Shown piece after piece: positions 4,579 through 41,818 of a stretch of 44,343 bases of DNA (position 1 is the stretch's first letter; each line of letters opens with the position of its first letter). This stretch comes from Gammaproteobacteria bacterium (GTDB lineage Bacteria > Pseudomonadota > Gammaproteobacteria > SZUA-229), in contig JBFHVK010000002.1 in the NCBI GenBank assembly GCA_041589615.1, forward strand, positions 1-44,343, written 5' to 3'. The translations under genes were made by a program, and so were the position numbers. The notes below the pieces were generated by a model. The model was not told the DNA's origin, ran no database searches, and worked only from the letters and a program-made list of their open reading frames with translations.

Positions 4579-7500
4579 TTAAACAACCAACCCGATATGT
4601 TCAGTCGAGTTTGATCGGATTTCCCAGCGGTCAAGTGTTAGTGTGTCACCACTGAAAGTATTGCTGCGCAGGTAGATAACATCACCAGCGGTGACAGAGA
4701 ATGAAGTTGAATATGAAGAACCCACAATTGATGACCATGTCGCCATTGTCGTTCCGTTCCGTCGAACATAGCATTGAGGGTCGCTTGTGCCGCCGCTAAA
4801 GTCTGCCCAAACGGTTATTGTTCCAGACGCTTTGCATATTGCTGTACGCGTTGTGAAGTTGTCACCATTCTCAGAATAGTAAAGCGCATCGGTAGAGTTG
4901 TATCCATCGCACCAGATTCGAACAGACCCAGATACTAGCGTGTCTCTATCTATAGAACCGGATGATTGAGTTCCAAGTAATACTCCATCACCATCGATGT
5001 AAATATCACTTCCACCGGAAGAAACTGCATCTGCGCCATTAATAACCACCGTTCCATATGCGACATATATGCAATAGTTAGTACACCCAGAAAGATCAGA
5101 GTTGTACGCATTAACTGTTGATCCAAGTGTTGACGTTATACCTGTAGGCGGATATGGAGAAACAAGGGATGTCCCAACGATAGATATGTTGGCGGAATCT
5201 GATGCCCATGCCAACTGAAGGTTGCAGTCCTCGACTGTTGATGATGATGCGTCTACGCTACCATCGTTTGAGCGAGCATAGTAGCCAACTCTAACTGCCG
5301 AAGCTCTATTCCCGATTATTTCACCACCATCGTCAGCCCAAAAAACAGAGCCAAAATCCTCAATATTTTGAGCTATGGCCATTATTCTCCCGTAACTATC
5401 AGCTCTGCAAAAGACTCCGTTGTTTTGACTATACCCTGAAAATGTATAGTTACTAGATGCTGTCAAGCTGTTTGTTGTTATTTTTGCACTTCCGTTATCG
5501 TGAGCATAGATTATTCCAGATATATCTGTTGTTAAATCGACACCACAGCTAAGTATTGGGGCCACACCACCATTATAAACCTCAATCCAATAATTGAGCC
5601 CAGATGGGGAAATTGTTAGCTGCCCAGACGTTTCAGTTGTCGTTATTGTGATCCAACCTAAATTTATACCGTCTATTGAATGGAAGTCGGTATCAACATA
5701 CCCACTCTGGCACTCAATAGTCGCAGTAAAGCCGCCGTTTTGATATGCAGGAACAACCCTACTTAATGCTTCTAATGCCTCATCAAGGGTTTCATAGTCG
5801 TAACCAGAACCAACTGTAACTGTTCGGCTTGTGTTATCGCCAATGGTAACTTCTGATCCAATAGTAATGACACTGCCGTCAAACGAAATAGAGTTATCAC
5901 CAGACCCGAAACTAAAGTTACCATTACTGTCTATATAGGTTTCAAACTGAGTGCCATTATAGTAACCCATGTAAGTTGAGGTTAGATTAAGGCCGGTGGT
6001 AGCTGAATCAGTAATCCTGTCTGGAATATTGGATAGAGTGCTGTTCCAGTCAGCGCCGACTGTTGCGCCTGATTCAATGCCGCTTAACTTAGTCCCTTCA
6101 GTCGAGTTCACGTCACTTAGTGATGTAGGCTCATTGGATATGTTTGAGCCCCAAGTAGCTCCAACAGTCGATACTTCATCCCATGTTGATCCGTTATACC
6201 TGCTTAAACTATCACTGCCGTCAGTATTAAACCAAAGATCACCCGCGCTTGCCGTTGTTGGAGCGGTTGTCTGATAATAAACCACAGCTTTACCGTCCGC
6301 CGTGGTTTGTGCTGTTTGCGCTGCATTAATTGCAGATGCAATATCACTATCTTGCGCACTAACCCACGAGGAGCCATTGTATCTATATACAGTGTTTCCA
6401 TCGTCAGTATCGAACCAAATATCACCATCGTCCATACCTGATGTAGGCTCAGAATCTTGATAGAATGACGTTATTTTCCCGTCAGCCGTAGACTGGGCTG
6501 TTTGAGCAGCAGCTAAAGCATCAGCTGCTTCTTGACTGACAATCAGAACCTGCGCGTCAACATAATCAGATACATCTTGTAAAGATGGAGACCAAGCTGT
6601 TGCTTTGTTACCACTTTCAAACTTAACGCCACAAATTGATGCTGTTTCGCCAACTTCAGAATCAAAAATACGACCAACAATTATATTTTTTATTGCCGAA
6701 TCACCAATTACCCATGTAATCCAGTATCTAGCCCAATCAGTTGTTAGCGTTGTAATGATGTTCCCATCAACCGATGATGACGTGTTCCCTTGAGAGTTGG
6801 AGGCTGAAACCGTACTTGAATCTCCACCATAAAGATATGACCTTATTGCGGTTCCGTCTGTATCTGATTTAGCATAAAAAGAAACTGTGAACGTAGTGTT
6901 TGATGACGTGTCAATATTGGTCTTACTGACAAAATCTGTGAACCCTGACGCTGGCCCTGTGGCCGCAGATATAGCAAATCCGTTGTAGTAATCTCCAGTC
7001 AAGTAAGTGGCGCTCCACGCTCCACCATCCTGAGTTCCATCTATTATGTTTATGCTGCCAACTTCGATATTATCCGCTGTATACTGAGCTGCCGCTGCAT
7101 CAGCTAATGCCTGTGATGCCTCAGATGATGCGGTTGTTAATGTAGAGTATTCTGTTGAATTGATGTCGTCTAGTGATGTTGGTGTTCCGCTGATATCAGA
7201 GTAATCATCAGCTGTGGCCAAGGCACCAGCATCAGAGAAGTTACTAACGCCTGAACCGCCAGTAATAGTCACAGAGCCTGTGAATTTAGCGTTACCAGCA
7301 GCATCAACCCAGAATGGGTAATTGCCAGCACCTTCTGCATATAAGATTAATGGGTTTGCACTTTCCGTGGGAACATCAACAGCACCCATAGTGACAACAT
7401 AACCACTATTAGTTGTATAAACATAGCCATCACCATCAATCTTAACGCCAGAATCTACGCCGTCACCTACCTGAACGTATTCAGTTGCAGCTATTGTTCC

Positions 7501-10500
7501 GGCAGTAATTTTGCCAGCGGAAACATCACCTATTTTCGCGTCAGTTACAGCTAGGTTACTGATAGCAGCAGTGCCAACAGCCAAATCTTCTATCTTTGCG
7601 CTAGTTATAGCTGCATCTGATATTTGAGCTGTATCTACAGCCAAGTCACCAATCTTTGCATTGGTTATTGCTGCATTAGCTATAGCGGCGGTACCAACAG
7701 CCAAGCTTGCTATCTTTGTTGATGTAACTGAGCTATCTGCCAGCTTAGCAGCTTCAACAGAAAGGTCAGCAAGCTTGCTTGTATCAACAGAGGCATCAGC
7801 CAAATTAACCGACTGCAACTCGCCAGTTATAGCACTACCTTCAAGATCAATACTTCCATCAGCTAGATTGTTTGCAGTTACAGCAAGGTCTGCCAGCTTT
7901 GAATTGGTGACACTATCATCAGCAAGTAGTGATTCGACTATTGACCCTGTTTCAACATACGTGCTGATGAATGCAGCATCAGCTTCATCGATAGTCGCCC
8001 AAGCACCGAGGCCATCAACATCAGCTGCATCAATACTCAGTAGTGTAAATTCAATGGTTGAACTTTGCTCGCCAGTGCCGAACTGATCTACAGACTCCAG
8101 ACCGACAACGTATGTTGTACCTTGTACAAGGTTGTCCCAAGTTACATTGTTTCCAGATACTGTTTTATAGCTTCCCTCTGTGTAAGGGTTATTGCCTGAG
8201 CCTTCTACGATGTAAGCATTAACGCCAACAAAATCAACATCAGTTGGAAGTGTGTAGTTCACTGTAAGGCTTGTGTAGCCAACCTCGCTAGATATGCCAC
8301 TAACTGCGCTAGGCTCTGGATTCTCTACGCTGATGCTTACATAGTCAGATGCGTAGCCAGTAGTTGCTACAGCCTGAACAGCAATAGTGAACTCACGAAT
8401 CGGAGTGCCATTATCTGTCTTATTCTTGTCGTAAGTGTAGGTATATTCTGGCTCAGTAAGTAGCGAAGATTCCCTCAGTAAATTGCCGTCACTATCCGAT
8501 ATAATAACTTTGTATCCAGATAAGAACACATCAGTAGAGCCACTTAATGAAACGATAGAGCCGCTGTCCGATGTTGACAATTCATTCCATTGGAATTCAG
8601 CATTGCCAGACTTAAACTGATTCCATCCTTCGTCATCATCAATTCGGTTTACCAGCTCCAAAGCTGTTGGCGTGGGTATAGTTAATGCTTCGTCTACGTC
8701 TGCCGTATTTTCACCTGCACTGACCTCTGTATCGTTCTCTACGATAGTTGTAGTGAATGTTGATGTGGTTACGCCGCCAGCAGCTCTAGCTACGTTGTAC
8801 GCAGTTACACGGATGTCGTATGTAGTGCCATCTGATGCCACTTCGAACGTGGTTGAAGTCGATGTGTCATAGCTTACCGATGTCCAAGTTGATTGCGTTG
8901 GCAGCTTGTATTCAACCAGCGCGTAATAGAAGTTATCGTCAGTTGAAGTTACATCAACTTGAATTGTCGATATGTTGCCAGCAGCGGATACTGGAGTATT
9001 GAGTAGCTCAGTGACTGTGAATGTAGGCGCTAACGCAGACTCGATTGTATCCTTGGTTGTGTCTGGAGTGTAGTCTTCAGCGGCAAGGAATCGCATCTTA
9101 TGGATTGCTGATTGATTGGTTGAAGATGAGTAGGATGTACCAGCATAAACTTCACCTGCTTGATATTGCGCGCCATAAGTATCTGATCCGGCAGTGCCAC
9201 GATAAACCTTCTTCCAGCTATCAAGATAGTTTTCTACATTGCTATCCCACGATCCAGAATCAGCTGTAACCAAGTCGTAAAGTATAGGTTCGGCAGCGTC
9301 ATTATTCTTTTGTGCAACGATACAGATTCCAGGGTAGCCAAATCCTGACATACCGCCAGCTGCATTAATAGTGACTGAGCGATCATCCCCATTGGCTCTA
9401 TAGTCGAACGTTACGCTTCCTTCAGTGCCTTGATTTGCGTCATCACCAGATAAGTCGATCGATGAGCTAGACTGATAGTAAAGGCCATCACAAATAAAGC
9501 ATATGCCAGCACCGCCAGATACAGCAGAGCCACCAGAAAGAACTTCAGTGCCATTATCGTATGTTGACTGACCACCAGCCCCGCCGCCCATGCCATTTAA
9601 TGAGCTTGGCAGTATTGCCGTTACATCATCGCCATCAGATATTGAAACTGTATACGACAGATCAATAGAAGTTGCCACATATGACGTTGTGCTTCTGTTC
9701 GAGTACAGGTTGATTAGATTGGATGTATTATTTGAATCCATATCTAGGCCATTCATTGACGCGTTACCGCCGCCAAAATAGCCATCATGCCCTACTGCTC
9801 CGCCCCTTCCTTTACCATCAATCTTTGCATTATCTTCAAGTGTAAAATCATCACAGTCAAAATAAACTGAGCCATTGATGTAAATGGTTGAGTCAGTATC
9901 TACAACGATATCACCGTCATAATAGTATTTGCCATCTGGAATGTTCGCGCCATCAGTAAATGTGAATGTGCTGCCGTCATGAGTGCCGTATGTTCCGGCA
10001 GACAGGTCAGTCCATCCAGTATGATCAATACTGTTAATAGCATCGCCGTTATCTGCTGTGAACGATGTTGGAACACCTTCAGATGCGAACAGGTTTAAGG
10101 TCACTTGGCCAGCAAAGAAATCAGTTGTTACCGATTGAACCTCAAATGACTCAAAGTAAGTGTCGAGTGTTTTATAGTCCGGCTCCTGCTCAAGCGTTAA
10201 GCCGACAATATCGCCAACCTCAATCTCTACAGCGTGACGGATTGGCACAGAAACAGTTCGCTCGATTGCGGTATTAGCAAGTCGCTTGACTTGAGACTGA
10301 GCAACGAAATCAAGGCTGGTTGATGAGCTTGAGTCTCTATTTCTCAGGCCCAGCAACTCAATTTCTTTAACCTCTGACTTAGTGCCGTATTTGGCCGCGC
10401 TATTTGCATCAAGGTAATAATCGAAGCGGTTATATTCTTCCTCAATCGGGTCATAAGACCAACTTATCTTGAAGTAATTCGTAATATCAGAAACGTCACG

Positions 10501-20233: not shown

Positions 20234-20704
20234 ATGACCATCATCGAAAAAGCCACATATGTTTTACTCTCAGTCATTATGATGACCTACATGCAGTGCG
20301 CACAAGCTGCTGATGTGTCTGTCTATCACGACATAGGCACAGTACACATGAATGAGTTCAACAGCATTCTAAATAACGATAATGACGTAACCATTATCAA
20401 GGTCAATGGCTTCCTGTTCGGCACCATGACCAATAGCTTCAACGATGACGGCTACTTTGCAGGCTATCAACGCAACCTGTACCGCAATGGCAGCTTTTAC
20501 CTTGATGGTGGCATTACTGCGCTATTCGGATATAAAGACCACTACTACACAGACGGTCAGCGCATCATCGATGATCCAGAATCAAAGGACGTTACTTATT
20601 TTGCGCCTATATTCTCTGCTGGATTTGAGATTGTTGACGGACTGTCATTTCAAATAAACAGTATGGCCGACGTTATTAACTACGGCTTTAAATTTGACTT
20701 CTGA
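20234..20704 (+). CDS. Secreted small outer-membrane beta-barrel-like protein (a moron in reverse orientation).
   Basis: A signal peptide ends in AQA|AD. Alternating hydrophobic strands are present, and the C-terminus YGFKFDF ends in an aromatic residue. The gene has its own RBS (aaggag). Confidence 0.5.
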   Translation: MTIIEKATYVLLSVIMMTYMQCAQAADVSVYHDIGTVHMNEFNSILNNDNDVTIIKVNGFLFGTMTNSFNDDGYFAGYQRNLYRNGSFYLDGGITALFGYKDHYYTDGQRIIDDPESKDVTYFAPIFSAGFEIVDGLSFQINSMADVINYGFKFDF

Positions 20705-22314: not shown

Positions 22315-23568
22315 TCACCTTGCCATGCTTACGTTAATGTTTGCAATCGGCTTAACTATAGGCATCTCGTAAGCTATCGGATACGTTGATGCGTCATTCT
22401 GGTGGTCTTTGCCGCCCTTCTTATCAGGCTCGCCGTTGTCATCGTAGGTTTGCTGTTCAAAGCATGCTGCAACGTCTGGACACAGCGAGTCATTCACGAA
22501 TAGCCGGCCCTGCTCAAATGCTGCATTAGTGGCGTTAACCCTATCTCGCACTGGTGGGTTGCTGGCCTTATAGCGACACTCGAACTTAAACTCATTGCGC
22601 AATATAGCTATATCTGACTCACTCACGCCGCCCATTCTGGTTCTGTTCTTGCCTGAGCTATCTGGATATATGATTATCTCATGGCCTTCATATTTGCTCT
22701 TCAGGGTTTTAGCAACGGATGGTGTATTGTAGCCTTTCGATATCTGGTCAACGGCATGCATAGACCTACCACGCATGACATAAACAGTCGCTGCCATATT
22801 ATCAATGTTAAAGTCCATACCAACAAATAGCGGCTCACCTGGCCTAGCAACCTCTTTGCTCCTATGTTTCACTCGGTCATATGACCTATACACAGTGCCT
22901 GCAGTAAGGTTCACGAACTCGCCGTTGATGTATGCGCTAATGAGCTGGGCAGGATATGTTTCAAACAGTGATGAGATATAATCAGGCGGCAGGAATGGCT
23001 CATTCTCGTAGGTACTGGCCTGAACCATCGAATAGGACTTGGTTGGGTTCTCGGCAAACTTAGAATAAACAAACTTAAACCCTTCAGGCGTAGTAGTCAC
23101 GCCAATGCCATTAACCACCCCAGGAATAACTAATCGCATACGAGCTACAATCTTATTCCATGCGTTTTCGGCCTTCTTAGCGTCCAGTACATCGATCTCA
23201 TCGACCAAGGCACGGGCAATCTTAAAACCAACGATGGAATCAGGCCTATCCATAGAGCGGCAGATAATAGTGCCGTAATAAGCTGAACCACGATACAGCG
23301 CAACCTCTTTGTCGGTGGTCTTAATGACGCACCTTACGCCCATCATCTCTGCAGCTTCTTCAAGCGTAGGATAGAAGATATCCCTAATTGCTGGATAGGA
23401 AGGCCCGAAATAGCCCTGCACGATGCCAGGATTTTGCAATGCGAATATCAGCAGATCACAGCACCCAACGAACGTCTTACCAGAGCCGAACCCACCAACA
23501 TAGCCTCGGTACTTAGTATTCAGCCCATTAAGAAAAGCATTCTGCGATGCGCTAAAGCTAATCGGCAT
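22315..23568 (-). CDS. terL: Terminase large subunit.
   Basis: It has a Walker A motif (GGFGSGKT) and a C-terminal nuclease-like region. It overlaps the small subunit gene. Confidence 0.85.
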   Translation of the reverse strand: MPISFSASQNAFLNGLNTKYRGYVGGFGSGKTFVGCCDLLIFALQNPGIVQGYFGPSYPAIRDIFYPTLEEAAEMMGVRCVIKTTDKEVALYRGSAYYGTIICRSMDRPDSIVGFKIARALVDEIDVLDAKKAENAWNKIVARMRLVIPGVVNGIGVTTTPEGFKFVYSKFAENPTKSYSMVQASTYENEPFLPPDYISSLFETYPAQLISAYINGEFVNLTAGTVYRSYDRVKHRSKEVARPGEPLFVGMDFNIDNMAATVYVMRGRSMHAVDQISKGYNTPSVAKTLKSKYEGHEIIIYPDSSGKNRTRMGGVSESDIAILRNEFKFECRYKASNPPVRDRVNATNAAFEQGRLFVNDSLCPDVAACFEQQTYDDNGEPDKKGGKDHQNDASTYPIAYEMPIVKPIANINVSMAR

Positions 23569-24477: not shown

Positions 24478-26118
24478 TCATGATGCCACCACCTTCCGTA
24501 AGCTGAACTCGCCGTTAGTGTCATACATTAACACATAGTAGGTGCTTCCAGATGTTAGCTCTTCCTGATCCCATGCCACATCATAACCAGCAGACGCGCT
24601 AAATGTTCCAGTTGCCACTAATGATGTTAGTGCAATATCAGAATAAATCTTGTACACCCCAGATGCTGATACATTCGAACCTAACTTGTTTTTTAGTTTA
24701 GGTATCGTAACTTTTGCAACTGCCACCACCTCAGCCTCAACCGTCACAAATGCCGATGCAGTGCCAGTTAAACCGCCGCTGTCTGCGCTTGTGGTTACTG
24801 TGATTTCATAGGTTCCGGCTGTATTGGCGACATATGCCGAGCTATCAACAGTATAGGTAACCGTGTCGCTATCGTCTGATGTTGTGATAGTGCCTAATAA
24901 TGAGTCACTCCATACAGTGCCATAGGGTACGCTAAGCGATGTGTTTTGGATGGTTACTGTTGGGGCTGTGTTAGCACCGTTGGTCTCGGATAATGTGAGA
25001 ACATACTGCGTCAACGTAGTTCCGTCGGTGCTTCTCACATAAAATTCCTGAGTGCCGCCGGTAAATACTTCATAATCTATCAGATTAAGTCCGTTGTTTA
25101 CTGGCGTAACGCCGTCTGGTGATGAAATGTAGGCTGTCTGACCAACCTCTAAATTTAACCCATAACCCCAATCCATAACGTCTAACATGCTGGACTGCTC
25201 AACAGCAGTTAGCTCAACCCACCCAGTAAATTCGAGAGTTATGGTGTCTTCTTGTGTTAACTCGGCGGATGAGTTTGACGCAACAGCAGTTAGCTCTCCG
25301 TCTAATAGCGTCATATTGGCAAATGATGGTAACGGCTCAGCTTCATATGTGCCATCGCCATTATTTGTCAGAGTTAGAGTTAGTGTTGTATCTGCGCTAT
25401 CAGTCAACACCAGAGTGGTTGCATCTAGCATTTCAGACGTAAGTGTTATCACTCCTTCAGGGCTAACAACGCTCTGATCAATTATCAGTGTAGGGAGCGA
25501 ATCGTCTGCCGTTGAAATGAACGCAGTTCCGTCTGTTGGGAATCCAACGCCTGTTGCATAGTTGTTTGCTATTGACTCAGGTATTACTGGCTGAGAGCCT
25601 GTGTCGCTTGAATCTGCCGTGTTGGCATCCCAGTTGTATACTAATGCGCTAGTGTCTAACGATTCATAAGCCCTGACGTACTCAAGATAACCGGGCATTT
25701 CTCCTGCTATATTCCCGCCGTCACCTAAAATATCAAAAAGACTGATTGTTTCAGAACAGGCTTTTGTGCCGAATGCATCTCCATCTAATAGGGCGGTTAG
25801 TGTAGTTCCGTCACATGTCAATACCCAGTCGTGAATATCTCCGTCTGCTAATACGGTTACGCCATTAGCACTGTCAATATCGTAGGTTGTGTTATTCAAC
25901 CTAACCTCTAGCTCGTCTCGGCCAAAATACGAAGACACCGCCCTAAATTGTATTTTGGTTAGAAATTCGTCTGATGAATAACCTACGACCTGTGTCCATG
26001 TGTTACTGACAGCAGGAACCGCAGCTCCTATCTCAATGCGCCAATTTGAGCTGCTGCTACTTACAGGAGATTGAATCTGTAGATAATCACCTAATGATAA
26101 ATCAATGTATTTACTCAC
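24478..26118 (-). CDS. LamG/ConA-like lectin-fold N-terminal domain plus Ig-like repeats. It may be a virion-associated carbohydrate-binding protein.
   Basis: The N-terminal ~170 aa resemble a concanavalin-like jelly roll. Thr/Ser-rich beta-sandwich-like repeats follow. Confidence 0.4.
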   Translation of the reverse strand: MSKYIDLSLGDYLQIQSPVSSSSSNWRIEIGAAVPAVSNTWTQVVGYSSDEFLTKIQFRAVSSYFGRDELEVRLNNTTYDIDSANGVTVLADGDIHDWVLTCDGTTLTALLDGDAFGTKACSETISLFDILGDGGNIAGEMPGYLEYVRAYESLDTSALVYNWDANTADSSDTGSQPVIPESIANNYATGVGFPTDGTAFISTADDSLPTLIIDQSVVSPEGVITLTSEMLDATTLVLTDSADTTLTLTLTNNGDGTYEAEPLPSFANMTLLDGELTAVASNSSAELTQEDTITLEFTGWVELTAVEQSSMLDVMDWGYGLNLEVGQTAYISSPDGVTPVNNGLNLIDYEVFTGGTQEFYVRSTDGTTLTQYVLTLSETNGANTAPTVTIQNTSLSVPYGTVWSDSLLGTITTSDDSDTVTYTVDSSAYVANTAGTYEITVTTSADSGGLTGTASAFVTVEAEVVAVAKVTIPKLKNKLGSNVSASGVYKIYSDIALTSLVATGTFSASAGYDVAWDQEELTSGSTYYVLMYDTNGEFSLRKVVAS

Positions 26119-26121
26119 CTA

Positions 26122-27540
26122 TTAAACCCCCGTATACGTGCCAACTGGAACATCATAAACCTGAACCAAATTAACGCCAGAATCTTGCCCATAACTCAGG
26201 ATTACATATAGCTCATTAGTCGATGGAACGAACGTTGATGACAGCACTCGACCCTTCATAACCCAATCACTCTCATCGAATTCCTTGTACTCTTCAGCGA
26301 ATGAATCAAAATGATAATAGTTCGGGTCATATAGATTGGTTGCATTCTTTATGTCATCAAGATTTACTGCCCATATGCAATTGTGCCAATCTTTGTTGCT
26401 AATAGGCTCAGGAGATGACGAATCGGTTCCAGATGACCCATCTTCCTCTAGCATATGCCCGTGGTACGTCCTGCCGAACTCACAGCCATAGGCCCTACCT
26501 ACAAATACCAGAGATTTTGAATTATTCGGGATAAAAGCACCTAAAGCACCCATAACATAACCGGTATGAGTGTTGAAGACAGAAGGGTCAGGGCGAGGAA
26601 GCATTTGCATCTGCTCGTACGTCATTTTGTTTCCCTCTACCTGATTTAGGTAATCTTCCATTGACGTAATGTTTGATGAGGTTACCCAGCTAAGATAGTG
26701 AGATAGGACGCCATCTACATACCAGTCATCAACTCCAGATATGGGCGATCCATTAGGGAAATTCATATACTCATCAGCTGAACCAGTATCGCCTGTTATA
26801 GATGATGGGTTCCACCCGTAGAATGCTGGGCCATACGGCCAGCGACCTTGAATTGATGCGTGACAGCATGACCCGCAACCATGTGTATTGCCATCAAAAT
26901 CAGATTGATGCTCTGTTGGTATGGTAAAAGCATACGCTGTTGTTTTGTCGCCCTCCCCCATATCAACTGTTTGCCATGTCGCATTCTCAAAGTCCGTGAC
27001 ATCACTACACACCACTAAATTATCTTTACTAGGAGTTGACCCAGCTTGGGAATCATATGCTCGATAACGCCCCATATACAGCTTTCCACTTTCAACTAAC
27101 ATGAATCCGACATCCTGTGACTGCAAGCTATCTTCTTCCGTTGTATAGCTGTAGGATATTTTATCGTCGAATCGAGTAAACCCATCAACTAGGGTTGCAT
27201 CCGGTAAATTGCTGATATCGCTATCAGTTGATAGTGTTGGGATCGAGAATCTAGCTATAACCGCGTTCCGGTTTGCGGTCTGCTTCGCTAGAATAACCAT
27301 ATTATTCACTGGGTCTATGCAACCGCGCTGCATGTATGCTGTCGAGTACCAGCTATCTGAATCCGTGTCTGTCGATGTGCTAGTGTTTGGGATTTTAAAC
27401 GCGCCCTTAAATGTTATCCCAGTAATGTCCCATGTAGAATCATCAGTTCCGTCTATCCCGTTTTGAAACTTAGATATAGAAAACTCTTCAACGTTGTCAC
27501 GCTGCCAATCAGCATAATCAACCGTTCGTGTAATAGCCAT
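26122..27540 (-). CDS. Large hypothetical protein (472 aa) with a Cys cluster. It may be a glycan-active enzyme.
   Basis: ATG at 27540 (MAITRTV) overlaps the upstream stop as TAATG. The motif HGCGSCCHASIQGRWPYGP is present. I recognise no family. Confidence 0.55.
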   Translation of the reverse strand: MAITRTVDYADWQRDNVEEFSISKFQNGIDGTDDSTWDITGITFKGAFKIPNTSTSTDTDSDSWYSTAYMQRGCIDPVNNMVILAKQTANRNAVIARFSIPTLSTDSDISNLPDATLVDGFTRFDDKISYSYTTEEDSLQSQDVGFMLVESGKLYMGRYRAYDSQAGSTPSKDNLVVCSDVTDFENATWQTVDMGEGDKTTAYAFTIPTEHQSDFDGNTHGCGSCCHASIQGRWPYGPAFYGWNPSSITGDTGSADEYMNFPNGSPISGVDDWYVDGVLSHYLSWVTSSNITSMEDYLNQVEGNKMTYEQMQMLPRPDPSVFNTHTGYVMGALGAFIPNNSKSLVFVGRAYGCEFGRTYHGHMLEEDGSSGTDSSSPEPISNKDWHNCIWAVNLDDIKNATNLYDPNYYHFDSFAEEYKEFDESDWVMKGRVLSSTFVPSTNELYVILSYGQDSGVNLVQVYDVPVGTYTGV

Positions 27541-27710
27541 TAACCAACCTCGCTTATAATTTGCCCGCACCTAACGCACTCAGGCCCGTCATCAGTCAGG
27601 GCGAACAACTGGCAACCGCATTCAGGGCAGCAATAGTCAGTGTCAACCGTGGCTGATACAGTCTCTATTGCTCGCTCTAGTTTAGCCGTTTCAAAGTCGA
27701 TTAATGACAT
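27540..27710 (-). CDS. Small 4-Cys zinc-ribbon protein (56 aa), the first gene of the late arm.
   Basis: MSLIDFETAKLERAIETVSATVDTDYCCPECGCQLFALTDDGPECVRCGQIISEVG. It is below the ORF-track cutoff and is translationally coupled to the next gene. Confidence 0.55.
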   Translation of the reverse strand: MSLIDFETAKLERAIETVSATVDTDYCCPECGCQLFALTDDGPECVRCGQIISEVG

Positions 27711-27770: not shown

Positions 27771-27794
27771 AATAAAAAAGCCCAGTTAAGGGCT
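27771..27794 (-). terminator. Rho-independent terminator ending the leftward early arm.
   Basis: The minus strand reads agccc-ttaact-gggct, followed by tttttatt. Confidence 0.75.
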
Positions 27795-27884: not shown

Positions 27885-29492
27885 TCAAAACCGCCATCTC
27901 CCGTCAATGATGAATAGATGCGAACGCTTTCCGTTTGCGTATTGTATGGTGTTGCAGTGCTGCCAGCTTGATGGGCCTTTGTTATAGCCTAGTCGAAGCA
28001 GGCTTAGCGTTCCGTGCTGGTACTGGTCATCTTCTATTCCTGGTGAATGGCTATGACCCCACTGAGCAGGCGACCCAAGCCGCGTAAACTGGATTAGACC
28101 GCCTCTTGAGCCATTAGCGCCCATATCACCGTGGCCATCATGCGACACACCATCAACAGTATACGATTCATCACGCTTCAAGAATCTAACTGAATCATAG
28201 TTCCGCATCCATTTGCTGGCGAAATACTCGTAAGGGTCGCGACCGTCAACCATGACCGGAAATGCCTCACACCAGAGAAGACCGTTAATCACATCCTTGC
28301 GCGGGTCAGTCTCCTTTACCCATCGGTCAAAATGCTCATCGTGGTTAGAACGCTTTATTACCACCTCTGCAGCCGTCTCTTCAGCTATCCTATCGATCAG
28401 CTCATATGTAGCCTTTAGTTCGCGCTCTACCGAGTCAAGTCCTTTAGATGACAATCGGTGCATCACTACTGGGTCGCGCCTGTTGTGGTGCGATGCAGAC
28501 TGAAAATCTAATGAGTCATCAATGGTTATGGCTTTTGGCCTAAAAAACTTAGCCATGGAGTTGTGAGCGAAGAATGTGGCATTAACCGCAGCAGGGTCAT
28601 GCTGTACGCCATGAAGGTCTCCAGTAGCCAGCAATGAAGGCCGTGGTGCTTGGTACGCAACGCCCATACAATACTCTGTATCCAAATCTATGAAGTCGCC
28701 ACGGGCATCTGCCACTAACTGCCGAAGAAAGAACTTATCTCCGTCAACTTCAATCAGTGCTGCACCTAATGTGTGCCGCGCCTCACCCTTATAGCCTGCT
28801 TTACTGTCTGTGTAGTTCTCAATGGTACAAGCGCCAGTTGTGACCATTGTCTTAGGTAGCCGGTTATTCTGAGTAGCGATTGAACGCAATTGAATCTTTG
28901 CATGCCCAATGATTGCCGAGCTATCGCCTGATGCTGTTTCCAATCCTGATAGCGGCCTGACTGCAGTCGGCTGAGTCTTTAGCCTGCCGAGTATCATCAG
29001 ATTGGCATTAACTTCAAAGTCATCTTCACATAGATACGGTCTTACCTTCTCGTCCCAGTAATCATGCGGGCGCTCTACGAAAGTCGATGTAGGGTTTTTG
29101 TATCTGAATGGTATAGCAAGGAGCTTTGCGCCCATAGTCTCGCAGGCGCATAGCAGGTTATTGAAGAATCGTTCGTGAACTGGTGTGTCGTTTTGTGCTG
29201 ATGTGACTATCATCGTGAACCGCCTTTGCTTTAGGAATCGCTGATAGTCTCTAGAAAGGTCTGTTATTTTGTCCTGGATGCTTGCGCTTTCTGGCTTGGC
29301 CTGAGCTTTACTTTCCGAACCTATATTGGCCTTCTTTCGAATGTACTTAACATGGTCTGTAATCGTTCCGAATGACTTGCCAAGCTCCTCAGCTATACCC
29401 TTCTGTGACTTACCTTCCCGCAGCATCTCCAACACTTCGCGCTGCTTATCAGTAAGGTCTAGCGAGTCCAGTGCATTGTCGTTCCAGTTCAT
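27885..29492 (-). CDS. Fusion protein: LuxR/sigma70-region-4-type HTH, an unknown middle domain, and a calcineurin-like metallophosphoesterase.
   Basis: The HTH reads LTDKQREVLEMLREGKSQKGIAEELGKSFGTITDHVKYIRKKA. The phosphoesterase motifs are GDLHG, SNHDEH, DGHGD and GHSHSPG. Confidence 0.7.
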   Translation of the reverse strand: MNWNDNALDSLDLTDKQREVLEMLREGKSQKGIAEELGKSFGTITDHVKYIRKKANIGSESKAQAKPESASIQDKITDLSRDYQRFLKQRRFTMIVTSAQNDTPVHERFFNNLLCACETMGAKLLAIPFRYKNPTSTFVERPHDYWDEKVRPYLCEDDFEVNANLMILGRLKTQPTAVRPLSGLETASGDSSAIIGHAKIQLRSIATQNNRLPKTMVTTGACTIENYTDSKAGYKGEARHTLGAALIEVDGDKFFLRQLVADARGDFIDLDTEYCMGVAYQAPRPSLLATGDLHGVQHDPAAVNATFFAHNSMAKFFRPKAITIDDSLDFQSASHHNRRDPVVMHRLSSKGLDSVERELKATYELIDRIAEETAAEVVIKRSNHDEHFDRWVKETDPRKDVINGLLWCEAFPVMVDGRDPYEYFASKWMRNYDSVRFLKRDESYTVDGVSHDGHGDMGANGSRGGLIQFTRLGSPAQWGHSHSPGIEDDQYQHGTLSLLRLGYNKGPSSWQHCNTIQYANGKRSHLFIIDGRWRF

Positions 29493-34450: not shown

Positions 34451-35314
34451 CTACTGCGCCTCGCACGACTGGCCGCAATCAAACTCAATGTCTAACGGGT
34501 CAATCTCGTTGATAAAGCTATATTGCTGCTCAGGCGGGTGCGGTATAAATTCATTGAATGGCTCTGATGACCTGGCAATTATATCAGCGGCGCTTTGGTA
34601 CCGCATAAAGAAAACGCGCTCCTGATCACCGGCACCACAATTCGGATATAACCGCTCCATTCTATCGAAAAACTCGAACCTCTCGGGCTCGTGCTTTGCG
34701 ATGGTCATGAGTTTGCGATCTGATTTTTTCCAGCATGTCACGCAGTTACCCATGTGCTCAGGTATTTCTAGCTTGAATGGCTGACTCTGCCACCAGTAGT
34801 AAATATCGCCTTTAGTTGTTGGATGCCATGATATTAGCGGATAGACGCATTTCGGATCAGAAGTCATCCTATCTATCTCATCAGACCGAATACCAATGCA
34901 GCGCGGGTGCTTTCGCTTAAACCCTATGCTGTGCATGTAGTGCTCCATTGTCGCAATCTTTAGCTCTCGGTTACAGTGCGGATAGTCAACGTTAGGTATG
35001 CCATAAACCTTAATCATTTCTTCAAACGGCTCGCCATTCCTTGATGCTGTTTCGAAGCTGACAACTTTGTGGCCCGTTCCCTTGCCTCGCTCTGGATTTA
35101 TTACGGCCTCAAGCCAAACCAAGTCAAGCCCAAAAGCGCTATCGCACTGATCAACGAACTCGAGTGTCTTTTCATGCTCCTGACCAGTGTTAGCAAATAG
35201 AAACTTAAGGTCGTACTTGCCTGATACGTTATCGATTAGCCATTTGCACATGTAGCCACTTGTTGCTCCGCCAGAGAACGAAACAAACAAAACCGGCTTG
35301 CCCTTTTTGCTCAT
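34451..35314 (-). CDS. PP-loop ATPase / PAPS-reductase-family protein.
   Basis: PP-loop motif FVSFSGGATSGYM at the N-terminus and a CxxC (CVTCWKK) in the C-terminal part. It is the first gene after the promoter. Confidence 0.7.
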   Translation of the reverse strand: MSKKGKPVLFVSFSGGATSGYMCKWLIDNVSGKYDLKFLFANTGQEHEKTLEFVDQCDSAFGLDLVWLEAVINPERGKGTGHKVVSFETASRNGEPFEEMIKVYGIPNVDYPHCNRELKIATMEHYMHSIGFKRKHPRCIGIRSDEIDRMTSDPKCVYPLISWHPTTKGDIYYWWQSQPFKLEIPEHMGNCVTCWKKSDRKLMTIAKHEPERFEFFDRMERLYPNCGAGDQERVFFMRYQSAADIIARSSEPFNEFIPHPPEQQYSFINEIDPLDIEFDCGQSCEAQ

Positions 35315-35363
35315 GCGTATTACTCCTAAGTTGTATTAATTACTAAGTTATATTTATTACTTA

Positions 35364-35391
35364 ACTATAACCATCTTACTGGTTAAGTGAA
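35364..35391 (-). promoter_or_regulatory. Candidate promoter of the helicase/primase operon: TTCACT, 16-nt spacer, TATAGT.
   Basis: The minus strand reads gTTCACTtaaccagtaagatggtTATAGTtaag. The core GGTTATAGTTAA is nearly repeated at 36743-36754. Confidence 0.5.
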
Positions 35392-35399
35392 CTTTTCCA

Positions 35400-35856
35400 G
35401 GTAAAGTACCCCAAGGGGCCATTGCTAGAAGCAAATCGAACTTTACCCGCGCCTTGTTCAGTCGGCGGTAAGGTCTTGACCATCATCACAATTAAGCCAA
35501 GTTGCAATCATTCCTCGTTGTGACGAGTCCAGCCCCTTTAATTGCTTTCGTACTCAGTTGACGCGTGGGCGTATCTTCTACGTCTCTCAATACAGACCGG
35601 TGAGTGAGGCCGCCTCCGGCCCGACATATCTCTTCTGTATCCAGCTGCATAACCTGTTCGGAGAAGGTTATTTAAGGCGCTCTGACTTTGCCAGCTAGCA
35701 GTGGCGGGATTTAGCACGTAGATTTGAAATGAAATTTGATGCCTCGTCCCAGTATGTCCCAAGTAAGTTGCGGCAGGCCAAATTCAGGAGTGAAATCAAG
35801 AATCGGGACAAGGTGGCTTTTCGAAGGTCGGGGAGCTAACCCAGTTATCTAGCCGC
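35400..35856. ncRNA. Candidate structured RNA / regulatory region A. It is ORF-free and hairpin-dense, and its strand is undetermined.
   Basis: There is no credible ORF. Helices: 35400-35407/35440-35447 (8 bp, enclosing two small hairpins), 35590-35596/35634-35640 (7 bp, enclosing the GC hairpin 35608-35612/35617-35621), 35649-35655/35665-35671 (7 bp), and long-range 35770-35774/35852-35856. Confidence 0.35.
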
Positions 35857-35857
35857 T

Positions 35858-35910
35858 TAAGTAATAGTGTACCAACGTTGGCAGCAAAATCAATAGCTAT
35901 CTATTACTTA
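35858..35910. promoter_or_regulatory. Operator-like perfect 10-bp inverted repeat TAAGTAATAG ... CTATTACTTA, flanking the palindrome CCAACGTTGG.
   Basis: 35858-35867 is the reverse complement of 35901-35910. The palindrome lies at 35872-35881. The right arm ends 6 nt upstream of the TATAAT -10 hexamer (35917-35922) of the HTH gene promoter. Confidence 0.5.
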
Positions 35911-35914
35911 TTTC

Positions 35915-35922
35915 TGTATAAT
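35915..35922 (+). promoter_or_regulatory. Extended -10 promoter (TGtATAAT) of the HTH gene.
   Basis: The sequence reads tttcTGTATAATtgtaac, about 30 nt upstream of the start codon. Confidence 0.5.
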
Positions 35923-35952
35923 TGTAACAAACAAACAAACATGGAGAATATT

Positions 35953-36249
35953 ATGAGTAACTTAAGCATATTAAAATCAATTGTTGAATCTGACCAAGAG
36001 GCGGCAGATTTGGAGTTCAGAGCTACCATGCTGATTTGCATTAACCAGATGATAAAGGAAGCTGGCCTGACACCTAAGCAGGTGGCGAAAATATTAGAGG
36101 TTCCAGCGCCACGGGTTAGCGAACTATTGGCTGGCAAAGTATCATTGATGTCTGCAAACAAGCTGATCAAATACTTAGGCGCGTTCGGGTTTAAGATTGA
36201 CATGTCATTTAAAGACGGAAAGCTATCGGCTGAAGTGGTTAGCGTTTAG
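35953..36249 (+). CDS. XRE-family HTH protein resembling HigA-2-type (COG5606) antitoxins. It may be a repressor.
   Basis: LTPKQVAKILEVPAPRVSELLAGKVSLMSANKLIKYLGAFGFKIDMSF. GGAG lies 7 nt before ATG 35953, with an alternative in-frame ATG at 35941. It is the only + strand gene inside a minus-strand region. Confidence 0.65.
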   Translation: MSNLSILKSIVESDQEAADLEFRATMLICINQMIKEAGLTPKQVAKILEVPAPRVSELLAGKVSLMSANKLIKYLGAFGFKIDMSFKDGKLSAEVVSV

Positions 36250-36279
36250 CCTTGCATTTATGCCATTTTCTGGCAGAGC

Positions 36280-36288
36280 TGGTATAAT
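36280..36288 (+). promoter_or_regulatory. Extended -10 promoter (TGgTATAAT) directly after the HTH stop codon.
   Basis: The sequence reads gagcTGGTATAATgtgc. It points into the ORF-free region B. Confidence 0.5.
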
Positions 36289-36294
36289 GTGCTG

Positions 36295-36830
36295 GAGCAA
36301 CGCATCAATGTTTCCTGTGCGTTGTGATAGGCGTGAGAACCTAATGCTGAGCTAGGCAGCGTGGCAGTCCGAAATGACCGCGCCGTAAGCGATAAACTAC
36401 CTAGCAACTATCCGGAAAAACCAGTGAGTTGCCGGCAATGAACCGTGGTGGCGGCCGCCCTCCTCGTAGAATGAATAAGCGGCCTTTGAATGAATCGAGT
36501 GTATGAACAGGTGGCATACGCCAGCACTCATCCGGCCAATGGCTGTCAGCCCAAGAGCGACTATAAAGCGAGCCTAGTTAGCAACATCCAGAGGAATGAT
36601 TCCGTTGCACGAGCCGAAAGGCCCTGCCAGTCAGGTTAAATCGTATCTGCTGAGGTTATTGTTTGTAGCTTAACCGATTAGACAAGGAAGTCTATCTTTG
36701 AGGTTTGCCTCGCCCTATCTCACGACAGTGCTTAGCGTCTGGTTAACTATACCAGCACGAGATGCGGAATCACCTTCCTTATCTAATTGCGATGAGTGAC
36801 TGCAAAATACCAACAGTCATGGTTATTATA
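36295..36830 (+). ncRNA. Candidate large (~0.5 kb) structured RNA B. The + strand is favoured, and an antisense transcript is also possible.
   Basis: No ORF of 60 aa or more occurs in any frame across about 590 bp. Many local helices are present, including the GAAA tetraloop hairpin 36613-36622, 36298-36304/36318-36324, 36351-36356/36400-36405 enclosing 36359-36364/36378-36383, 36453-36458/36479-36484 and 36634-36639/36670-36675. A terminal hairpin lies at 36797-36802/36814-36819. Confidence 0.4.
36746..36754 (-). promoter_or_regulatory. Extended -10 promoter-like element (TGgTATAGT) on the minus strand, convergent with the one at 36280.
   Basis: The minus strand reads cgtgcTGGTATAGTtaacc. 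It shares GCTGGTATA with 36278-36286 as an inverted repeat. Confidence 0.4.
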
Positions 36831-36843
36831 AACTAATTGTTGG

Positions 36844-37026
36844 TTATACCACAATCAGAAACCCTATCCACCCAATAGCGCCCCAGCAAAACATTGCAAT
36901 CATTGCTTTCGTTGAGCATTCATTCTCAGACCTTCGCCCTGAAAAGTACCCCTTGCAAAACCACATTGACTCAGCTGTTTTACACTCATCAAGTACCAAT
37001 TTTTCTACATCATCAAGATAGGCCAT
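36844..37026 (-). CDS. Small membrane protein (60 aa).
   Basis: The C-terminal TM reads AMIAMFCWGAIGWIGFLIVV. A 3-nt gap separates it from the upstream gene. Confidence 0.5.
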   Translation of the reverse strand: MAYLDDVEKLVLDECKTAESMWFCKGYFSGRRSENECSTKAMIAMFCWGAIGWIGFLIVV

Positions 37027-38334: not shown

Positions 38335-39102
38335 ATGAGCATAAAAAACATGACGCTCTGGGATAAGGTTCAAAAGACCAACCCAGCGTTCACCAAGGAG
38401 AATAAGCACGGTGCAGGCGGCGGAACAAGCATTAACACCACCTACGCATTCAAGTGCGCAACTGAAGCCTTTGGGCCAATCGGTATTGGCTGGGGCTATG
38501 AAGTATTGGCTGATGAAATTATTGAAGGAGCTACCGTATCTTTTGGCGCTAAAGAGTCTCAGCAGTTCATTACTGAAAAGATTCATACGCTCAAGATTAA
38601 ATTTTGGTATAAGCTGAACGGCGAGCGTGGAGAGTTTGAGCAGTACGGGCACACAGACTATGTGGGCAAGAATAAGTATGGCCCATACACTGAATCAGAA
38701 CCGCAGAAGAAAAGCCTTTCAGACGCTATTAAAAAGGCTCTGTCGATGCTTGGCTTCAGTGCTGACATCTACCTTGGCATGTATGATGATATGAATTATG
38801 TTAATTCAGTCATTGCAGAAACATCAGCAGAGACAGCCGAGGAGATTATAGACCGTGAAGAAGCCAAGGCTCAGGAATTCAGAGACTGGGTAGAAGAACG
38901 GAAATCAATATACGACGCTGCCCAGTCGGTCAATACCGTTAAGACTGCGCACAATAAGTCACTACGAGTATTGAACGAAAGGTTCAGTCGTGGATTGATA
39001 AGTCAAAAACAACATGACGGCGCTGTTATAGCGCTTGAAAAACACTCAAAATCAGTAATTGAAAAAGGAGAATCAGGTGAAGCAACTATACAAGATAAGT
39101 GA
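38335..39102 (+). CDS. Rad52/Sak-like single-strand annealing protein.
   Basis: KKSLSDAIKKALSMLGFSADIYLG resembles the conserved Rad52/DUF1071 helix-hairpin region. A Gp157-like gene and SSB follow it. Confidence 0.55.
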   Translation: MSIKNMTLWDKVQKTNPAFTKENKHGAGGGTSINTTYAFKCATEAFGPIGIGWGYEVLADEIIEGATVSFGAKESQQFITEKIHTLKIKFWYKLNGERGEFEQYGHTDYVGKNKYGPYTESEPQKKSLSDAIKKALSMLGFSADIYLGMYDDMNYVNSVIAETSAETAEEIIDREEAKAQEFRDWVEERKSIYDAAQSVNTVKTAHNKSLRVLNERFSRGLISQKQHDGAVIALEKHSKSVIEKGESGEATIQDK

Positions 39103-41316: not shown

Positions 41317-41369
41317 TTGATTTCGAGGGTGACTCCTTCCCTCAGCTTCGTTTCAACTCCTAGTGATTT

Positions 41370-41397
41370 AGCCCCTATGCGTTAGGGGCTTTTTTTT
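41370..41397 (+). terminator. Rho-independent terminator.
   Basis: agcccct-atgcgtt-aggggct, followed by ttttttt. Confidence 0.85.
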
Positions 41398-41400
41398 GCC

Positions 41401-41478
41401 TCAAATAGAATAAAACACGCCGCATGCTATAGCGGCCATTAGTGTGCAGGTTGTTATTGCGCATAGTAGTTGTTTCAT
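41401..41478 (-). CDS. Possible 25-aa hydrophobic peptide with a lipobox-like AIAC motif.
   Basis: MKQLLCAITTCTLMAAIACGVFYSI. Its ATG overlaps the stop of the upstream gene as ATGA. Confidence 0.25.
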   Translation of the reverse strand: MKQLLCAITTCTLMAAIACGVFYSI

Positions 41479-41693
41479 GCTAATCCCTCCGGCCATTCAG
41501 GCGCTGGTTCCCAGTAGATAATATCCTCTACCGATGTTGAATATGTGTCTGAGTCTATATCAATAGCCGCATCACCCGCGTAGGTTCCGAGAGCCATGGT
41601 TAACCCTCCGAGTCCTGAAATCTCACCGTACCAGAAACCGACTGCAATTATAGATTGACCAACAACTGGACGTTCTTCACTAAACTTTTTCAT
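41475..41693 (-). CDS. DUF551-like small protein.
   Basis: The C-terminal IIYWEPAPEWPE resembles the DUF551 W-x-P-x-P motif. RBS aggagg is present. Confidence 0.45.
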   Translation of the reverse strand: MKKFSEERPVVGQSIIAVGFWYGEISGLGGLTMALGTYAGDAAIDIDSDTYSTSVEDIIYWEPAPEWPEGLA

Positions 41694-41756
41694 ATTACCT
41701 CCTATTTCGAGTGCTCAGCATAGCAACAAAATAACATAAAAACAAATAAAAAATTG

Positions 41757-41785
41757 TTGACGGATAATGTTTGTGGGGCTAGTAT
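41757..41785 (+). promoter_or_regulatory. Sigma70-like promoter: TTGACG, 17-nt spacer, TAGTAT.
   Basis: attgTTGACGgataatgtttgtggggcTAGTATgcagg. Confidence 0.6.
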
Positions 41786-41818
41786 GCAGGTGCGAAATAA
41801 ATAAACAGGAGTTAGCAA

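Follow-up and report, generated by a model that had tools for sequence, protein, structure and literature searches.

A conserved multi-helix, RNA-like element in a gene-poor gap of a phage genome and its possible role as an operon leader

The phage genome on contig JBFHVK010000002.1 (assembly GCA_041589615.1, Gammaproteobacteria) was analysed over 44,343 nt (positions 1 to 44,343, referred to as the window). Greedy tiling of the open reading frames (ORFs) showed that neighbouring genes across the window are mostly abutting or overlapping. At one place, in contrast, 1529 bp separate the ATG of a PAPS-reductase-like gene (34451-35314, minus strand; Pfam PF01507) from the stop codon of a 60-aa ORF (36844-37026, minus strand), and the sole convincing ORF within 35315-36843 encodes a 98-aa helix-turn-helix (HTH) protein on the opposite strand. 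These results agree with the original prediction, made by a model from the letters alone, of an ORF-poor stretch of about 1.4 kb with a single HTH gene of ~98 aa in an otherwise gap-free genome. The question raised by this locus is what such a gap contains and whether it is one inserted or duplicated cassette bounded by a direct repeat, as had been proposed. By the comparisons given below, the left third of the gap is occupied by an element of an undescribed structured family that is present in four distant phage lineages.

In a sensitive blastn search of the phage collection, the 99-nt core of the element (35472-35570) was about 80% identical to unannotated gaps of ~525 bp in seven Vibrio breoganii phages of the Nahant collection, and the similarity extended weakly to ~210 nt. 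Stricter first patterns built from the shared core returned nothing, and a relaxed two-block pattern detected marine and freshwater homologues. The marine ones were located on two metagenome contigs (L017, L019), one IMG/VR contig (L026) and one contig binned with an Aliivibrio genome (L029); the freshwater ones were on viral contigs L021-L025. Six additional matches (L018, L020, L027, L028, L030, L031) were discarded after inspection as chance pattern matches. The window element was closest to the Vibrio copies, with 71% identity over the element core, and no other DNA was common to both phages.

The conserved structure was evaluated by covariation. RNAalifold predicted 27 base pairs for seven sequences, 16 of them with compensatory changes. 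The covariance model R1 covered the core helices H1-H4 (124 positions, 23 pairs), and ten sequences were realigned to it. R1 matched 35472-35595 on the minus strand over the full model length with 123.1 bits (E 3e-25); the window sequence itself was used in building R1, and the blastn and nhmmer matches to the Vibrio phages constitute the independent support. With the filters off, exactly one copy was detected in the window, the runner-up at 38661 scoring 12.9 bits, and one copy was also present in the complete Vibrio phage record. In the ten-sequence alignment, standard pairs were found in 90.8% of the helix cells, compared with 28-49% when the 3' partners were slid by 1-3 columns. Both sides had changed in 15 of the 23 pairs, and the observed covariation score was not reached by any of 500 shuffles.

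The helix cells contained 24 G.U and no A.C combinations when read on the minus strand, and the same 24 were mismatches on the plus strand. The functional strand is therefore the minus strand, which is also that of the flanking genes. Such strand-specific pairing fits RNA or, in principle, single-stranded DNA of the same polarity. Outside the core, helix H0 with its inner hairpin, H5 and H6 were recovered at equivalent positions in every lineage by single-sequence folding of unrelated sequences. Read on the minus strand, AUUAAAGGGGCUGGAC, GGAAUGAU, ACUGAGU and the loop GCCCA were invariant across the lineages, with sequence-divergent helices in between. A pseudoknot is proposed in which GCCC of the H1 loop would pair with GGGC at the H2/H3 junction. 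The single-sequence folding z-score of the element was +0.3 to +1.0 despite its covariation-proven fold, and folding z-scores are for this reason weak and uninformative at this locus. A copy of TTGCAATCATTGCTTTCGT at 36894-36912, within the 60-aa ORF, equals both arms of H2 (35502-15 and 35541-51) fused to each other, with the invariant core missing; chance or a trace of recombination is possible.

No ORF was conserved across the element, and the marine copies had 21 open codons over the core with no start codon. The homologous gaps of the Vibrio, marine and freshwater loci were also ORF-free. The search of the whole window with Rfam 15 (4227 models, including C4/CI, ROOL, GOLLD, HEARO, riboswitches, ribozymes and group I/II introns) gave no matches at the gathering thresholds. 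At E <= 10, positions 35250-36950, the Vibrio locus and four other members resulted in scattered noise from eukaryotic miRNA and snoRNA models, with no family recurring. Neither tRNAs nor tmRNAs were detected. CUGAGU...GAAA was also considered as a hammerhead-like motif and rejected by eye, as stem II is absent and core position 8 is wrong.

The genomic contexts of the element were compared in its own reading direction. In the window, the element is followed by a promoter-like site, the PAPS reductase gene, an 83-aa ORF, an SF2 helicase (520 aa), a primase (309 aa) and a leftward gene train of ~34 kb that runs on to the structural genes. The marine order is a TTGACA-17-TAATAT promoter, an unannotated 45-aa ribbon-helix-helix gene, a hairpin with a U-run, the element, an AT-rich stretch, small ORFs, helicase and primase. 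The ribbon-helix-helix gene (FitA-like/Arc, Pfam E 6e-8) lies directly 5' of the element, at ~5380-5420 of the oriented contig L029 and at the equivalent place of L026. The marine unit is situated within a divergent intergenic region of 820-880 bp and must therefore carry its own promoter. In the freshwater loci, helicase, a TTGCAC-17-TATAAT promoter, a 5' domain of ~190 nt ending in an 18-bp helix and U6, the element and further genes follow each other. In the lambdoid-like Vibrio phages the order is a NinB/RusA-type region, a winged-helix gene, the element, a 65-aa ORF and the terminase small subunit; here the element adjoins the terminase genes, ~5 kb from the O/P-type replication genes.

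The orientation of the element relative to the neighbouring genes was constant in all loci with readable neighbours. In most loci with readable flanks, it is surrounded by a non-coding gap of 0.5-0.9 kb and has the orientation of the operon that follows. In the window, marine and Vibrio lineages it occupied the 5' part of a long co-oriented operon; in the freshwater contigs it is downstream of the helicase, and a promoter-like site usually lies between the element and the genes after it. The helicase-primase module stands beside the element in three lineages, the Vibrio phages being without it. The helicases of the marine and freshwater loci were 44% and 32% identical to that of the window, respectively, and since the element was kept together with helicases as divergent as these, it is regarded as an old partner of the helicase-primase operon. 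The sequence data depict it as an ancient companion of that module which has also moved into another phage type.

Several narrower partnerships were rejected. The element is not a leader for one gene family, the downstream genes being unrelated between the lineages. The PAPS-reductase gene was dismissed as its partner, as the 11 nearest relatives of that gene (43-65% identity) are found in different contexts, with abutting ordinary ORFs and no element. A cos/pac packaging site, suggested by the terminase small subunit beside the Vibrio element, was also discarded, the window terminase being 12 kb distant. Close phage relatives were not found in the collections searched: 24 kb of the window, compared with the phage collection by megablast, matched over 41 nt of a terminase gene and nowhere else, and a 107-aa neighbour protein had no relatives in IMG/VR.

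In Vibrio phage 1.082.O, a separate unit was observed 5' of the element (685-870 of locus L001; MG592457 ~34941-35126), consisting of TATAAT, ~125 nt with a 20-bp hairpin and a U-run. It was 70-76% identical in many Vibrio phages of differing genome types, always unannotated and intergenic, and may represent a late-promoter/terminator module or a small RNA.

The positions of the element, its helices and the other features of the gap are collected in Table 1.

Table 1. Features of the 35315-36843 gap and their positions in the window (promoter and terminator assignments are predictions)
Feature	Position	Strand	Description or basis
Conserved multi-helix RNA-like element, ~264 nt	35379..35642	-	Covariance model, covariation, outer helices in each lineage
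Helix H0	35634-42 paired with 35589-96	-	Closing helix, single-sequence folds
Helix Ha	35606-22	-	Hairpin inside H0
Helix H1	35560-84	-	Loop AGAAGAUACGCCCAC
Helix H2	35539-45 paired with 35504-10	-	
Helix H3	35514-27	-	
Helix H4	35475-35501	-	
Helix H5	35450-67	-	
Helix H6, long hairpin	35400-48	-	
Helix H7	35379-35400	-	
Invariant strand ACUGAGU	35552-58	-	
Invariant strand AAGGGGCUGGA	35528-38	-	
Tandem pair of AT-rich 17-nt repeats, TAATAAATATAACTTAG and TAATTAATACAACTTAG, within the PAPS-reductase 5' UTR	35326..35359	-	End in Shine-Dalgarno AGGAG
Left repeat copy, reads TGGTTATAGTTAAG, promoter-like TTCACT-16-TATAGT	35360..35391	-	Sigma-70-like score; repeat = -10
Lineage-specific stretch 5' of the element (right part of region A)	35643..35856	-	No homologue, no protein remnant
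Divergent control region	35857..35911	.	Inverted TTAAGTAATAG pair (35857-67, 35901-11)
XRE-type HTH regulator, 98 aa, Pfam HTH_37 family	35953..36249	+	Profile search; orphan without toxin partner
Promoter-like ATGCCA-17-TATAAT, extended -10 TGGTATAAT	36260..36288	+	10/12 matches, TG present; directly past the HTH stop, into region B
Region B, G+C-rich non-coding DNA	36290..36742	.	Convergent promoter-like sites at its flanks
Right repeat copy, reads TGGTATAGTTAA, extended -10 (TGnTATAGT)	36743..36754	-	Leftward into region B
Hairpin CCAACA...UGUUGG (36810-36843), then UAUUUUG; weak candidate terminator	36800..36843	-	Read from sequence; directly past the 60-aa ORF stop

The HTH protein matched Pfam HTH_37 (PF13744) with 62.5 bits over residues 13-85 (cutoff 27), and its nearest solved structure was 2a6c (E 1.4e-10). 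It was rejected as a HigA antitoxin: the TIGR02607 score was 16.5 bits against a cutoff of 47.7 bits, and no toxin-sized ORF adjoins it. Its only matches were itself, on 13 identical contigs, and the six-frame translation of the flanks of its gene resulted in no protein homologue. The contigs L009-L015, which carry this protein, all derive from a single Logan study (SRR292574xx); the seven were 100% identical to the window over the stretches compared, and at least one of these assemblies is circularly permuted and broken within the PAPS-reductase gene.

For region B and the right part of region A, no protein was matched at E <= 1e-3 when their six-frame translations were compared with 5.8 billion proteins. 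Region B gave noise-level matches only against phages, and neither it nor the whole cassette matched plasmids or E. coli genomes. Decayed protein-coding sequence was rejected on three grounds, namely the lack of any six-frame match, the ORF-free homologous gaps and the lack of an ORF conserved across the element, so the gap is non-coding as originally predicted. The folding z-score of region B was -3.75 on the minus strand (none of 100 shuffles folded as stably) and -2.0 on the plus strand. A second element copy in region B is dismissed, as R1 did not match 36250-36843 on either strand with filters off at E <= 10. An inverted paralogue had been suggested by collinear short matches of region A (minus strand) to region B (plus strand); 8 of 200 shuffles scored equally high, and this candidate was rejected.

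The HTH gene, the right part of region A and region B had no relatives in the searched collections and are, by these searches, private to this phage. As an old element stands beside a private HTH gene, a private right part of region A and a private region B, the 1.4 kb is better described, from its sequence, as a composite regulatory region than as one inserted cassette. The idea of an RNA-plus-repressor module holds for the left two thirds, where an RNA-like element adjoins an HTH regulator; a single bounded mobile cassette is not supported. The predicted structured regions fared likewise unevenly: the left part of A is borne out by covariation, and the evidence for region B is thermodynamic.

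The bounding repeat was found at both predicted positions, as TTAACTATAACCA at 35361-35373 and TTAACTATACCA at 36743-36754. The 13-mer with mismatches allowed was not rarer than chance (6 matches, 4.1 expected). The exact 9-mer core TATAGTTAA, in turn, occurred four times in the window with 0.34 expected, a count reached by none of 100 shuffles. The minus strand carries both boundary copies and a third one at 22352, 63 nt upstream of the ATG of the portal gene; the plus-strand copy is at 8677. The reading of the repeat as a minus-strand -10-type core fits both boundary copies, the left one forming part of a predicted sigma-70-like site and the right one reading TGGTATAGT, an extended -10. As had been expected for the promoter of the PAPS-reductase/helicase/primase operon, the left promoter-like site lies ~50 nt upstream of the PAPS-reductase ATG, and its -35 falls within helix H7. 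In the Vibrio and marine loci, the left copy has counterparts at the corresponding place, namely TA..AGTTAA-like sequences 3' of the element. With these counterparts and the minus-strand copy near the portal gene, a recurrent promoter-like motif is a better description of the repeat than an insertion or duplication scar; its core is not confined to the two boundaries, as it is also present at 22352 and 8677.

Between the element and the HTH gene, the inverted TTAAGTAATAG pair brackets both TGTATAAT, which precedes the HTH gene, and a weak promoter candidate on the minus strand (TTGATT at 35888-93, 16 nt, TGGTACACT at 35866-74) which points into the element. A third copy of TTAAGTAATAG (35354-64) overlaps the left promoter-like site of the PAPS-reductase gene. 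The motif had four matches in the window with 0.95 expected, and three of the four are in the gap, at three candidate promoters. We infer that the TTAAGTAATAG sites are candidate operators of the HTH protein. The hairpin past the 60-aa ORF, a candidate terminator of the upstream early leftward operon, was not called by the terminator scan.

The element is most readily explained as a regulated operon-leader RNA which promotes middle/late gene expression, possibly by antitermination; the probability of this reading is estimated at roughly 40%. The element would be transcribed from the minus strand ahead of middle/late genes and would act on their expression. The likeliest route would be an action on the transcribing polymerase that leads to terminator read-through, as with the put RNA of phage HK022 and the plasmid conAn2 RNA; an effect on the promoter directly 3' of the element would be a less likely one. 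The divergent HTH_37 protein would bind the TTAAGTAATAG motifs and repress three promoters, namely its own, the one that feeds the element and that of the PAPS-reductase/helicase/primase genes, and the two repeat copies would be the -10/start regions of two similar leftward promoters. The controlled operon would contain helicase and primase in the window and marine phages, and terminase and structural genes in the Vibrio phages. The element twice adjoins unrelated small DNA-binding regulators, HTH_37 in the window and ribbon-helix-helix in the marine loci. A possible downstream target for read-through is present within the leftward train, an intrinsic terminator at 27779-27794 (minus strand). 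This site, AGCCCTTAACTGGGCT followed by TTTTTATT, is the only strong minus-strand intrinsic terminator of the train and lies just downstream of the gene for a 535-aa protein.

Several results weigh against the leader function. A long hairpin with a U-run is located just 5' of the element in three lineages, and a cis antiterminator is unable to affect a terminator situated upstream of it. Promoter-like TATAGT/TATTAA/TATAAA-GTTAA sequences lie between the element and the downstream genes in three of the four lineages, so the downstream genes could be transcribed without the element. The candidate promoter of the element in the window is weak, with 8 of 12 matches and a score below the scan threshold. 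The freshwater element is downstream of the helicase, with no obvious operon head. No likeness in sequence or architecture to put, conAn2, EAR or any Rfam family was found. The covariation itself comes from four independent lineages only, with a shuffle control that ignores relatedness and an alignment fitted to the model structure, and it would be equally compatible with structure in single-stranded DNA.

It is somewhat unlikely, yet deserves most attention among the alternatives, that the element constitutes an independent gene for a trans-acting non-coding RNA, carried as 'moron' cargo, with its own promoter and a target in the host or phage. Its RNA could sequester a host protein or a defence system as a decoy or sponge, or be an ornate RNA with its own biochemical role like ROOL, GOLLD or OLE, and the operon-head position would merely reflect where phages tolerate insertions. 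The identity of the neighbouring genes would then be immaterial, in line with the differing contexts, which include a classic moron site after the late-promoter/terminator-like module of the lambdoid-like Vibrio phages. The closeness of the window and Vibrio cores in the lack of other common DNA suggests horizontal movement, H0 of the Vibrio phage copy is directly preceded by an extended -10 (TGATAGAAT), and in the marine loci a long 3' hairpin is followed by a U-rich tail. The invariant unpaired AAGGGGCUGGA, GCCCA and ACUGAGU also resemble a binding or catalytic core. A gene of this type is, however, difficult to reconcile with the orientation, which is always that of the downstream operon where the flanks are readable, with the freshwater copies, which have no room for an own promoter between the upstream U-run and H0, or with the lack of a consistent 3' terminator across the lineages; no candidate target or partner protein is conserved alongside. 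The proximity to replication genes allows another explanation, which we consider improbable: that the element marks or primes the phage replication origin, as a single-stranded DNA loading site for primase-helicase or as an R-loop pre-primer like ColE1 RNA II, with the adjacent small regulator controlling initiation as CopG does in pMV158. The SF2 helicase and primase module is adjacent in three of the four lineages, the element being immediately upstream of it in the window and marine loci and immediately downstream of the helicase in the freshwater contig L025. The marine ribbon-helix-helix gene has the size of CopG/Arc, AT-rich tandem 17-mers adjoin the window element, and the strand-specific pairing also suits single-stranded DNA. 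On the other hand, the Vibrio element is ~5 kb from the replication genes and next to terminase genes, the element is G+C-rich (~0.47-0.53), neither iterons nor an AT-rich unwinding element are conserved across the lineages, and no second, lagging-strand copy was found in the window or the Vibrio genome.

The operon-leader reading does not account for region B, which lies outside it and which forms the main cargo in a further proposal, that the whole 1.4 kb including the HTH gene is a recently acquired immunity or anti-defence cassette. Convergent sense and antisense RNAs over region B would then form a switch with the HTH repressor, comparable with the face-to-face promoters of 186/P2 or with P22 immI. 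The convergent extended -10 promoter-like sites at the flanks of region B are consistent with this, as are its unusual minus-strand stability, the restriction of the HTH gene and region B to this phage and the lack of such a gap in the PAPS-reductase relatives. Nevertheless, the left third is old and linked to the replication operon, which speaks against a single cassette, and the ORFs scanned included no integrase or other lysogeny gene. The z-scores of region B are unreliable where the proven element gives values of about 0 to +1, and the weak collinear resemblance of region A (minus strand) to region B (plus strand) was neither significant nor accompanied by an R1 match. The cassette is given little credence. 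A further reading also appears unlikely, although less so than the origin or the cassette: the element would be a new class of phage RNA which sets the middle/late timing by itself, either as a large antiterminator, protein-independent or regulator-assisted, or as a switch in which AUUAAAGGGGCUGG pairs with the 3' arm of the preceding hairpin. This complementarity extends over 13 nt with one mismatch in the freshwater loci, and if such a switch existed it would mean positive feedback on the read-through into the replication/structural operon. In L023-L025 the partner is the 3' arm of the 18-bp helix (CCAGCCCAUUUAAAGGGG), complementary with one mismatch to the invariant AUUAAAGGGGCUGG of the element; in the marine lineage the complementarity is weaker and requires G.U pairs. 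It may reflect alternative pairing or mere motif duplication.

The element was compared with the known systems that it most resembles. The put sites of phage HK022 are ~70 nt long, form two stem-loops and are located directly downstream of the PL and PR promoters. The nascent put RNA alone modifies RNA polymerase and suppresses pausing and termination (PMC9378689). Similarly to put, the element is a phage sequence ahead of long operons, orientation-specific and independent of the identity of the downstream genes. In contrast to put, it has ~264 nt and at least seven helices, with a terminator-like hairpin on its 5' side and a promoter-like site on its 3' side in three lineages; the put architecture was not matched and no similarity was found. 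The conAn2 RNA is part of the bipartite conAn processive antitermination system of pLS20 and other Gram-positive conjugative plasmids, and its structured region of ~283-315 bp comes directly behind the gene of a small protein, close to the beginning of a long operon, with an internal promoter after it (PMC8191782). The element shares with it the size of a few hundred nt, the non-coding and structured nature, the position near the start of a very long co-directional operon, the internal promoter directly 3' (predicted for the element), the closing long-range helix and, in the marine loci, the place directly after a small protein gene. The two differ in sequence and fold, between which no similarity was detected, and in their carriers, which are Gram-positive plasmids for conAn2 and tailed phages of marine and freshwater Gram-negative communities for the element. 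In addition, the neighbours of the element are DNA-binding regulators (HTH_37, ribbon-helix-helix), and its antitermination is putative.

In phage P4, the immunity leader/CI RNA (C4 antisense family) is an untranslated structured leader upstream of the primase-helicase operon (P4 alpha), and this RNA controls replication genes. The immI region of P22 (arc/mnt/sar) combines small repressors with RNA regulators, Arc being a ribbon-helix-helix protein. The structured leader ahead of a phage primase-helicase operon and the combination of a small repressor with RNA are common to these systems and the element. The element nevertheless has no Rfam C4/CI match and no internal complementary repeats of the seqA/seqB type conserved across the lineages, and signs of lysogeny were lacking among the ORFs scanned in the window phage. 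Candidate structured RNAs, as yet uncharacterised, have also been described from phages (PMC10690425). These candidates, ROOL, GOLLD and HEARO resemble the element as phage-borne, multi-helix, conserved intergenic non-coding RNAs of unknown function; compared with the three named families, the element is smaller, has no Rfam 15 covariance match and no adjoining tRNAs.

To our knowledge, the RNA elements known to govern entire phage operons are very few, and every one of them has been informative on the control of RNA polymerase or replication. Should the element prove to act in antitermination, in the priming of replication or as a trans-acting effector, it would be a new RNA class in phage biology and a portable regulatory part. 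The family is carried by cultured Vibrio phages of the Nahant collection and is for this reason directly testable. The 'empty' gaps of 0.5-0.9 kb, annotated as nothing in these phage genomes, hold a conserved function.

Further observations were made elsewhere in the window. The 535-aa protein mentioned above (27885-29492, minus strand) had a strong match to the PHROG 'DNA transfer protein', and its first ~60 residues resemble the helix-turn-helix of LuxR/sigma-70 region 4; judged from this resemblance, it is possibly a phage-encoded late-gene transcription factor. Just upstream of the terminase genes, two minus-strand ORFs of 546 and 482 aa (24478-26118 and 26122-27570, respectively) had no PHROG or NCBIfam match. 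A PagP-like gene (lipid A acylation; 20234-20704, plus strand) is located on the opposite strand between structural and portal genes and is moron-like. The other ORF-poor stretch of the window, 41317-41818, was found to be ordinary: it contains an intrinsic terminator (~41371-41398), an opposite-strand 72-aa ORF (41475-41693) with a good ribosome-binding site and a TTGACG-17-TAGTAT promoter that serves the next rightward genes.

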